Virus record (IMG/VR): IMGVR_UViG_3300031257_000001
Span: 1-64,000 of that record
DNA length: 64,000 nucleotides
Reading direction: 5' to 3' (one strand)
From: a virus
In this document: piece by piece, positions 12,190 through 14,274 of the stretch
How positions within the stretch are numbered: position 1 is the stretch's first letter
How the letters are laid out: every line of letters starts with the position of its first letter
Translations under genes and position numbers: made by a program
Notes under the pieces: generated by a model
Seen by the model: only the letters and a program-made list of their open reading frames with translations
The model's database searches: none
What the model was told of the DNA's origin: nothing

Positions 12190-12255
12190 GAATTCAGCGC
12201 GGGGTTGGCCGATTCAGTAAGGGGAATCAAGAAACAACAACCAGGAGATCAGCAA

Positions 12256-12984
12256 ATGGCTGCAAGAAAAGTGGAGAGTAAAAAGCAGAGAAGCGTGGAT
12301 GTGGTGATCACCCCAGTGATCACGCATGAGTTCGACTTGACGTTGGTCGGCACCAGCATCCTCGTGGTCAATTCGATGGTCGGAAAGCTTGCTGAGGAGC
12401 TGCGCCGGTCGCGATTCGGGACTGCCAAACCCAAGAAGCACGCTGACGAGGCTTCGTACAATCGTGAGTGCCGTGAGCGCTTCATGGCAGCGCGGTATCG
12501 TCTCCAGAGCGGTCAGGACGGGTTCCCGGCGGTCACCATCAAATACGCACTCGTGGATGAGTGTACGTTCCTGGATGGTGTGGAGAAAACCAAGGTGCGG
12601 GCCGGCCTCACCGTCAACGGAGGTGAGTTCTTGTGCCCCATCTTCCACGACGCAGAAGAGCCCACGATGCGTGAGGATGTCGTCCGTGTGGGTGGTCGAG
12701 CGGGCCGTGGCTCCGGGACTGCTTCGCTGGCCTATCGGCCCGAGTATCGCAACTGGCGCATCCCGGTCCGTGTCACCTACGATCCGACCCTCGTGACGCC
12801 ACAACAGATCGTTGCGTTGGCCAGCCGCGCCGGCTTCCACCAGGGCATCGGCGAATGGCGCAAGCCCAAGGGCGGCGAGTGGGGCCGCTTCAGGGTTGAA
12901 GAGGGCGTGTCCATCCCTGCCAACCTGTTTCCCAAGACCAAGGGTTCCAAGCCTAGCAAGGCTCGGCGCGGGAAGGCAGCGTGA
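12256..12984 (+). CDS. Solitary Cas7/Csm3-like RAMP protein (candidate RNA-guided effector)
   Basis: RAMP motifs in order: beta1 FDLTLVGTSILVVN; GFPAVTIKYAL (cf. IPGSSxKGxL); thumb REDVVRVG...SLAYRPEY; G-rich loop GIGEWRKPKGGEWGRF; RBS GGAGATCAGCAA-ATG. Confidence 0.75.
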   Translation: MAARKVESKKQRSVDVVITPVITHEFDLTLVGTSILVVNSMVGKLAEELRRSRFGTAKPKKHADEASYNRECRERFMAARYRLQSGQDGFPAVTIKYALVDECTFLDGVEKTKVRAGLTVNGGEFLCPIFHDAEEPTMREDVVRVGGRAGRGSGTASLAYRPEYRNWRIPVRVTYDPTLVTPQQIVALASRAGFHQGIGEWRKPKGGEWGRFRVEEGVSIPANLFPKTKGSKPSKARRGKAA

Positions 12985-13478
12985 GTCGCTTCAGGTGGAT
13001 AACGGCGCGCTTCAAGGGCCGAGCCGATGCGCAGAAGGTCGGTGAGGCCCTGGAGGCCATCGAGCGCCGTGACGGCGACCTGTCCCCGGCCGCCATCGTT
13101 GAAGCGGCGAGGGATCCGAGGTCACCACTCCACCCGTGCTTCACTTGGGCAGACGATGCAGCAGCAGAGAAGCACAGGGAGACCGAGGCCCGTGCCGTCG
13201 TTCGTTCTTGCCGCATCGTGGTCAGAATCAAAGGAGGTGGAAAGAAGACACGCCGCAAGTGGATCAGCGTCAGAATTGACACAGGCGAGGAGCGCCCACG
13301 TCGTGGGTACGTTTCCATCACCAAAGTCCGCAGCGGTGAATTGGCAGACGAGATCATGGCCGAAGCAGCGCAAGGACTTCGCCAATGGGCTGGGCGCTAC
13401 AGCGAGCTGCGAGGGCGGCTCCCCGGGTTGTTCCAGGCCATTGACGAGGTGCTGGCCGAGTACACGAAGGCCGCATGA
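12981..13478 (+). CDS. Phage accessory protein coupled to the RAMP gene
   Basis: GTGA overlap; LSPAAIVEAARDPRSPLHPCFTWADDAAAEKHR...AR motif; its stop lies directly before the array. Confidence 0.75.
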   Translation: MSRFRWITARFKGRADAQKVGEALEAIERRDGDLSPAAIVEAARDPRSPLHPCFTWADDAAAEKHRETEARAVVRSCRIVVRIKGGGKKTRRKWISVRIDTGEERPRRGYVSITKVRSGELADEIMAEAAQGLRQWAGRYSELRGRLPGLFQAIDEVLAEYTKAA

Positions 13479-13505
13479 GGGCACGAGTTGCCCACGGAAC
13501 GGATC

Positions 13506-13935
13506 GGCTGCTACGGACAAGGATGGTACGCAGTTGAGGAGGCTGGTCGCGATTTGATCTGAGAGGGCTGGTCGTGTGTGGCTTGGCTGCTACGGACAAG
13601 GCTGGTCTTCTACTGAGGAGAATAGCCGTGATTGGAGGTCAGAGGACTGGTCGTGGGCTGTTTGGCTGCTCTGGAATTGTCTGGTGGTGTTGTGTCCAGA
13701 ATGGCATCGTTGTCGTGTGAACTGTGTAGTTTGGAATTGATCGGAGCGCGCCGGTGAGGCTGCTTCGGAGTGGATCAGCGCGGCAAGCGTTAGCAGGGAA
13801 CAGGATAGGCTGGAAGGGAATGGTGAGGCTGCTTCGGGTTGGAACGTAGCGCCAATGGCATGGTTGGTTCCGACGTGAGATGCTTGGTTCCGACGTGACG
13901 CGAGCGGCAAGGTTGCATCTGTTCAGAGAGGCTGC
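13506..13935 (+). ncRNA. Pentamer-periodic guide-like array: (NN + nGn) units delimited by GGCTGC
   Basis: GG(C/T)TGC at 13506, 13585, 13664, 13758, 13827, 13911, 13930; spacings 79, 79, 94, 69, 84, 19 are all 5n+4; G at one phase in 72 of 80 pentamers and never A; RNA status is inferred. Confidence 0.85.
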
Positions 13936-13956
13936 AGCTCATCTGTTTCTACAAAA

Positions 13957-14000
13957 GCGGGTGATGGTCGCACGGTGGGTTCGACTCCCGCCGGCCCGCC
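13957..14000 (+). ncRNA. tRNA-like mini-domain (acceptor-like stem plus T-arm, no anticodon arm)
   Basis: GCGGGT(13957-62)/GCCCGC(13994-99); CGGTGGG-TTCGACT-CCCGCCG; bulge GATGGTCGCA with a D-loop-like GG. Confidence 0.6.
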
Positions 14001-14001
14001 T

Positions 14002-14274
14002 ATGGCACGTAGCCTCAAGCCGGGAACCCGCAACTACAACTTCATGGACATGGCGGGCGTCCGCATCGGGCGCGTGGTGGTCACGTCCGAGGCATCCAGC
14101 GCTTGCGGGAATGCCCGGTGGCACTGCCAGTGTGACTGCGGCGGGACCTTCATCGACCAGGGCATCCACCTCCGCTCCGTCATGAAGTCGGAGCGCCTGG
14201 GCAAGCGCAAGTATCCTTTCAGCTGTCCCGAGTGCCGTCCCAAACGGAAGGGCACCTATCAGAGGCGCACATGA
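14002..14274 (+). CDS. Small Zn-binding protein resembling the WxCxCDCG module of HNH/AP2 endonucleases
   Basis: IGRVVV...RWHCQCDCG...SCPEC; no nuclease domain. Confidence 0.6.
   Translation: MARSLKPGTRNYNFMDMAGVRIGRVVVTSEASSACGNARWHCQCDCGGTFIDQGIHLRSVMKSERLGKRKYPFSCPECRPKRKGTYQRRT

Follow-up and report, generated by a model that had tools for sequence, protein, structure and literature searches.

A tRNA-like minihelix at the end of a phage VIPR array: member of an unannotated RNA family and putative RNase P/RNase Z punctuation signal

In a phage genome from salt marsh (IMG/VR record IMGVR_UViG_3300031257_000001), the guide-RNA array of a VIPR locus is followed by a short sequence that resembles part of a tRNA and stops 2 nt before the next start codon. 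This raises the question of what the sequence is, and what it does at the junction between an array and a gene. The genome is a single contig of 104,326 bp with about 60% G+C, complete according to CheckV, and the window analysed here is its first 64 kb (64,000 nucleotides). The neighbours of the element are vipr, vap and a small HNH-like gene. The features of the locus are as follows.

12205-12984, plus strand: vipr, encoding the RAMP/Cas7-like protein of the VIPR system (homologue searches; family in bioRxiv 10.64898/2026.04.26.720920)
12981-13478, plus strand: vap-like accessory gene (phrog_15946; conserved with locus L084)
about 13506-13935, plus strand: vrRNA array with pentamer-periodic guide tracts and six GGCTGC delimiters, the last at 13930-13935 (sequence, periodicity detector)
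13936-13956, plus strand: A/T-rich spacer of 21 nt from the last GGCTGC to the element; the predicted RNase P site has A13956 at -1 (sequence)
13957-13962, plus strand: 5' strand of the acceptor-like stem, GCGGGT, pairing with 13994-13999 (sequence, RNAfold, family model)
13963-13972, plus strand: conserved linker GATGGTCGCA, 10 nt, containing TGG (family consensus G-AYGGTC-GYA)
13973-13979, plus strand: 5' strand of the T-stem, CGGTGGG, pairing with 13987-13993 (RNAfold)
13980-13986, plus strand: T-loop TTCGACT (sequence)
13987-13993, plus strand: 3' strand of the T-stem, CCCGCCG (RNAfold)
13994-13999, plus strand: 3' strand of the acceptor-like stem, GCCCGC (RNAfold)
14000-14001, plus strand: discriminator-like C14000 and T14001; if RNase Z cuts after 14000, as predicted, the AUG would be preceded by a leader of 1 nt
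14002-14274, plus strand: 90-aa zinc-ribbon protein, kin to the N-terminal part of phage HNH endonucleases (phrog_374, E 5e-8; relative in L141)

The initial annotation had placed a T-arm with a TTCGACT loop on a 6-bp acceptor-like stem, 21 nt past the last GGCTGC, and the sequence agrees with this to the base. Its other structural details were also borne out: a 10-nt linker containing TGG, no anticodon arm, no encoded CCA and the next ATG at 14002. A D arm is absent from 13957-13999 as well, and the GG of the linker is a candidate analogue of G18/G19, as in the D-loop. RNAfold gives exactly the stacked fold of 6 bp and 7 bp as both the minimum free energy and the centroid structure (-22.3 kcal/mol). 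The folding energy is unexceptional (z -1.39 for a 54-nt segment and z -0.70 for a 108-nt segment) and, not being significant, was set aside as evidence; it is family membership, and not folding energy, that makes the element more than chance.

Several known identities were searched for. ARAGORN found no tRNA or tmRNA gene in the window or in the entire 104-kb genome, and the Rfam tRNA model RF00005 had no match at E <= 10 in the whole genome. A canonical tRNA gene was rejected on these blank results and on the lack of the D and anticodon arms of a cloverleaf. No Rfam model matched the element at gathering level, the best weak matches being tRNA-Sec (15.2 bits) and mascRNA (RF01684, 14.5 bits against a gathering threshold of 42.5), and Rfam gave nothing at E <= 1 in four element-bearing actinophage loci. 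An intrinsic terminator was also rejected: the trailer is CTATGG, there is no U tract after the hairpin and none was called at the site. As start codons, GTG 13975 inside the T-stem and the ATG of the linker were considered and rejected.

The fold is shared with other phages. A permissive blastn search of cultured phages with the 54-nt segment returned weak matches in unannotated intergenic DNA of actinophages. Konstantine, VanLee, Endor1 and MakoManhole share the architecture of the window element but differ in the sequences of their stems. The actinophage copies run from a first stem strand (5-6 bp) through ATGGTCGYAG, a second (5-7 bp) and TTCGACT to the two complementary strands, and A-C follows. 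A further blastn search listed copies in cultured Gordonia, Mycobacterium and Streptomyces phages; Mycobacterium phage HINdeR is another cultured carrier. In the GenBank phage records, among the matches examined, none carries an RNA annotation for the element and all but two are wholly unannotated there. A search pattern consisting of the linker and T-loop only matched at least 110 IMG/VR contigs. Among the matches listed, 81 of 95 unique ones form an acceptor plus T stack of 11-13 bp, with 12 bp in 56, 13 bp in 20 and 11 bp in 5; the acceptor/T-arm stack of tRNA is 12 bp long. These structured copies, again among the matches listed, contain 59 distinct acceptor stems and 65 distinct T-stems.

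Covariation was measured in an alignment (A3) of 74 distinct copies from which the window was left out. Pairing was found in 92.9% of cells, compared with 58.7% in shuffles, a percentage that is somewhat inflated by a family set seeded by a sequence pattern and then filtered by structure, a filter passed by 81/95. Double-sided changes occupy 267 cells, compared with 74.5 in shuffles, and none of 500 shuffles reached the observed values. When the pairing was slid by 1-3 columns the covariation score was at most 0.27, against 0.80 in register. In the family consensus the linker G-AYGGTC-GYA and the T-loop TTCGAYT are constant and both stems covary strongly.

A covariance model (R1) was built from A3, that is, from 74 other sequences. 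It matches the window at 13956-14001 over its full length (model positions 1-46) with 51.8 bits and E 5e-15, and this is the only copy in the 104-kb genome. In the pattern-derived loci, among the matches listed, R1 found 131 copies, with member scores of 19.5-71 bits; 27 of them depart from the seed pattern yet retain GAYGGTC and TTCGAYT. The window copy has a stack of 6 + 7 = 13 bp, the GATGGTCGCA linker and GG-TTCGACT-CC, and its (6,7) stem layout is common to sixteen unique family members among the matches listed. It is intergenic, on the coding strand between the array end at 13935 and the ATG at 14002, as fits the placement of the family, which spans phages of very different G+C content. 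The element is a member of a widespread, unannotated and conserved phage RNA family, and it is a selected RNA fold that reproduces the tRNA acceptor/T-arm stack. Already known are tRNA-like processing signals, as a kind of element, and VIPR, as a system; a description of this family was not found in Rfam 15 or in the searchable literature, by topic words or by linker sequence.

Two further sequences were noted during these searches. The only other weak R1 match in the phage, at genome positions 71121-71149 (L262:7221-7249, 15.7 bits), has a stem and GGATGGTCGT but no T-arm; it could be the remnant of a former copy or a chance match. Between the tRNA-Gln and portal genes of Microbacterium phage Blab (L144:1400-1545) there is a tRNA-like stretch of about 140 nt that is not annotated. 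Its terminal stem is 10 bp long (GTAGCAGGGG / CCCCTGCTAC), and it further contains a type-II-like D region, a long internal insert and a T-arm of GCGGG TTCGAGT CCCGC; ARAGORN makes no call on it.

Family membership also bears on the alternative first offered, a tRNA-derived att remnant. This alternative is rejected, as the acceptor stem is complete, with its two strands covarying in the family. The proposed comparison with host tRNA 3' ends gave no support to it either: the exact 23-mer from the T-loop to the acceptor 3' end matches no tRNA. Among one genome each of 185,579 species, in which the true host may be unsampled, its single match is a site of Nonomuraea terrae whose surrounding 8-kb locus yields no tRNA call, and it is absent from IMG/VR viral contigs. 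That the element is an att remnant, a decayed tRNA gene or a chance hairpin is hardly tenable. The unremarkable folding energy (z -1.39), the presence of GGTTCRANTCC twice in the window and the resemblance of the linker-to-T-arm sequence to the variable loop and T-arm of ordinary tRNAs would agree with such an origin, but it is contradicted by family membership (E 5e-15 against an independent model), by the two retained and covarying acceptor strands and by a sole exact 23-mer match at a non-tRNA site. The element is also unchanged in contigs X2, X4 and X5 from three other salt-marsh samples, although the variants nearby are too few for this to carry weight. The element is not chance, not a tRNA gene and not an att scar.

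The same covariation, which includes G-U pairs on the coding strand, indicates selection on an RNA fold and not on a DNA site. It therefore counts against a reading of the linker and T-loop as a DNA-level target or landing site of homing endonucleases, with which the HNH-like gene at 14002 would have come along. The genes downstream of the window copy and of the copy in L234 are HNH-endonuclease-like, HNH genes lie about 1.1 kb downstream in MakoManhole, and the VIPR cassette and its flanks are mosaic. However, most copies have no HNH neighbour, and this reading is highly improbable.

The positions of the copies were surveyed in 109 structured copies among the matches listed. Most often (61/109) they follow a long ORF on the same strand, starting mostly 6-12 nt past its stop codon, while 19/109 lie directly 3' of 5-nt-periodic (pentamer) arrays. 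About three quarters of family copies among the matches listed have no array or vipr nearby and follow ordinary genes, and the genes beside family copies are mostly of 'unknown function' in PHROG. A Vipr gene was detected on the same strand for 27 copies with an iterated HMM (matches listed) and lies near 19 of the 110 pattern-derived loci listed; in Gordonia phage MakoManhole it is gp78 (hhalign probability 98.4%). Array and minihelix alternate at a spacing of about 110-120 nt in L159, L218, L251 and MakoManhole (L147), the last with two such units, and single-guide loci with a minihelix after the guide are L196, L207 and L253. Minihelices are also found upstream of vipr (MakoManhole L147 and L199) and directly past the vipr stop codon (L159). 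In a low-G+C contig, L191 (IMGVR_UViG_3300032247_001328), six minihelices occur within 6 kb, at sites between 758 and 4825, several with divergent linkers.

A second regularity concerns the downstream side. In eight copies (the window and seven others) an ATG stands exactly 2 nt after the stem and starts an ORF of 60 codons or more, the ORFs belonging to four unrelated gene families, that of the window included; the next distances are 4, 8, 12 nt or more. No Shine-Dalgarno sequence precedes these ATGs, that of the 14002 gene among them; the acceptor strand leaves no room for one. Two of the genes with this spacing are HNH-like, that of the window (14002-14274, phrog_374) and L234:1468-1702 (phrog_59/1492/959), a possible tie of the minihelix to mobile endonuclease genes.

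Is the element a part of the VIPR system? The closest VIPR relative, L084 (86% Vipr identity), has an array that ends in an unrelated GC hairpin, and the element is absent. What window 12259-13505 and L084:1596-2830 have in common is limited to vipr, vap and a leader hairpin (TGAGGGCACGAGTTGCCCrCGGAACGG); the flanking genes are unrelated on both sides, which points to transfer of the VIPR unit as a cassette from one phage backbone to another. R1 found no full-length copy in 146 VIPR loci (about 0.9 Mb), comprising about 140 selected by Vipr and the cultured-phage loci Saal, Pipp, Ecliptus and LESphi2. Relatives of vap, of the 14002 gene and of the 11734 gene were found at distant loci or not at all, and in none of these is the element present. 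In the Vipr tree the element-bearing loci form the clade farthest from the window protein (ranks 143-161 of 162 by distance). The conservation at homologous arrays that had been proposed as a check was thus not found, the element being missing from L084 and about 140 further VIPR relatives. It follows that it is not an inherited or fixed part of this VIPR type, and that vrRNA biogenesis in the clade of the window does not need it. Of the initial description as a tRNA-like mini-domain closing the array, the tRNA-like selected fold at a transcript-unit boundary stands, and conservation in this VIPR type does not. Judged from sequence comparison, the element would be a general phage punctuation module that stands where the array meets the next gene; 'closing the array' is probably a consequence of the position of this module, which may be of no less use to the downstream gene than to the array.

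Other observations were made on VIPR arrays. A complete tRNA-Cys(GCA) lies 5-10 nt upstream of the arrays in five viral contigs (L038:3299-3372, L041:1615-1688, L043:6508-6581, L046:3092-3165 and L080:6744-6815), with two quite different tRNA sequences. These loci lie in another branch of the wider clade of the window, and their layout is a parallel to the placement of the element. In their close relatives L037, L042, L044 and L049 there is no tRNA and the array comes right after the preceding stop codon. Mycobacterium phage Saal (L258:2125-2380) and Gordonia phage Ecliptus (L260:3164-3400) have Vipr homologues and long continuous GGC-NN arrays with GGCAGGC delimiters and without tRNA-like tails; the Saal array runs into the annotated vipr start. 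At window positions 13583-13661, one salt-marsh sample (X5) carries a variant with an extra array unit of 79 nt (a contig joint that 'goes back 79') and a different guide in the loose end, so the vrRNA array gains or loses units in the natural population.

The alternation of guides and minihelices in the distant clade suggests another function. In the VIPR preprints, vrRNAs are described with a constant 3' tail, which is a pseudoknot in the SUSP1 clade, and with arrays that are staggered or interspersed with hammerheads (bioRxiv 10.64898/2026.04.26.720920). The minihelix could be such a tail or handle of the vrRNA: it would remain on the guide, where it would nucleate the Vipr filament or cap it, and tRNA enzymes would do no more than trim its 3' end. 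This is attractive for the distant VIPR clade, where one minihelix follows every guide tract (L159, L218, L251 and L147, and the single-guide loci); the length of about 44 nt is close to the SUSP1 tail of about 40 nt, and there is a Vipr gene near 19 of the 110 loci. The window locus fits poorly: five units share one minihelix, which stands 21 nt past the terminal delimiter and does not separate the units, the Vipr of the window is the farthest from the tail-bearing clade, and its VIPR relatives lack the element. Across the family, about three quarters of the copies are without array or vipr, and some precede vipr genes, where there is no guide to cap. A constant 3' tail, the same structure after every guide and conserved in the clade, is seen only in the distant Vipr clade and not in the window, for which the tail function is quite unlikely.

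Bacterial RNase P and RNase Z recognise the acceptor/T-arm stack. The best-supported mechanism is predicted cleavage by these enzymes, which would free the array RNA and a near-leaderless mRNA of the 14002 gene, and we give it a probability of about one half. Terminator and promoter prediction found nothing between vap and 14509, and co-transcription is therefore plausible. The element would be co-transcribed with vipr, vap, the array and the next gene and would act as a punctuation mark. Host RNase P would cut at 13956/13957, where the guide-RNA array transcript would then have its 3' end; a cut by RNase Z after C14000, or trimming from the 3' side, would produce the nearly leaderless mRNA. 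The folded minihelix may shield whichever RNA end it remains attached to. Placement after stop codons, between or after guide tracts and 2 nt before start codons is what is expected of an RNase P/RNase Z signal. Bacterial RNase P prefers U at -1, and the base there is A13956, which was counted against an RNase P site; A at -1 is the family majority in A3. In the tail-bearing clade a 5' cut by RNase P would detach the minihelix from the guide, and sits awkwardly with a handle role there.

The stack might also act uncut, as a tRNA mimic that blocks 3' exonucleases or that recruits or titrates a tRNA-binding host factor, and would then be a stabiliser or decoy. The factor could be the CCA-adding enzyme, a T-loop modification enzyme or a defence toxin directed at the tRNA acceptor end. 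Conservation of the linker GG and T-loop, which fits a tRNA elbow, agrees with this, as do the spread over phages of very different G+C and the copies right after stop codons. Mimicry leaves unexplained both the exact 2-nt distance to start codons without Shine-Dalgarno sequences and the alternation with guide tracts, and the acceptor stem has no conserved pair of the kind that sets aminoacylation identity (A3 pair table). We consider it unlikely.

Extended to the family, predicted cleavage leads to a broader and slightly more tentative proposal. Phages of many hosts may use a mobile 'top-half tRNA' module that hands polycistronic transcripts to host RNase P and RNase Z, frees VIPR guides, makes leaderless mRNAs and caps mRNA 3' ends. 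The window would then be an independent recruitment of this module beside a VIPR array, in a clade otherwise without it.

Similar arrangements are known elsewhere. Plant mitochondrial t-elements are non-decoding tRNA-like structures at the 5' or 3' ends of mRNAs (Forner et al. 2007, PMC1920247). They have been proposed to act in cis as signals to RNase P and RNase Z, and their excision leaves minimal mRNA leaders (PMC1920247). The phage element has in common with them, and with mitochondrial tRNA-punctuation, a tRNA-like fold at the ends of RNA units and a minimal leader, here predicted. T-elements, however, are organellar, whereas the element described here belongs to a bacteriophage family with a fixed minimal set of acceptor, T-arm and 10-nt linker, and in some phages its copies punctuate not only mRNAs but also guide RNAs. 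In engineered tRNA-gRNA arrays, guides alternate with tRNA units and endogenous RNase P and RNase Z release each guide (PMC6297969). The tandem array-minihelix-array-minihelix loci L159, L218 and L147 match this layout, although the engineered arrays are artificial and use full tRNAs, while the natural element is a top half of 44 nt with putative processing.

The vrRNA architectures described for VIPR share with these loci a constant structured element after or between GGY/NN guide tracts, and the hammerhead-interspersed arrays are a precedent for built-in processing elements. The minihelix differs from the latter in being tRNA-shaped, and it would use host enzymes instead of self-cleavage. 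Compared with both SUSP1 and hammerhead arrays, the window element is single, follows the whole array and is missing from the nearest VIPR relatives. The VIPR preprints with accessible full text never use the word tRNA, and 'tRNA-like' is absent from another paper that mentions VIPR arrays.

Among RNAs that keep a tRNA-like part, mascRNA (MALAT1, MEN-beta) is a tRNA-like structure 3' of a non-coding RNA, and an RNase P cut upstream of it makes the mature 3' end. It matches at a low score and is not homologous; it is eukaryotic and keeps D-like and anticodon-like arms, neither of which the phage element has. The tRNA-like domain of tmRNA also combines an acceptor stem and T-arm with a D-loop analogue replacing the D arm, but the element is without the tag reading frame, pseudoknots, G3:U70 pair and CCA.

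For the window, this interpretation makes two predictions: where the array RNA has its 3' end, and that the 14002 gene has a leaderless start. If tRNA enzymes cut here, this would be the first proposed route of VIPR guide-RNA processing by host tRNA enzymes, a question left open in the VIPR preprints with accessible full text. It would define an RNA family that current annotation misses, and provide a small natural building block (about 44 nt) with which several guide RNAs could be released from a single transcript. If true, tRNA punctuation, known from mitochondria, would also be a common strategy by which phages build their transcripts.
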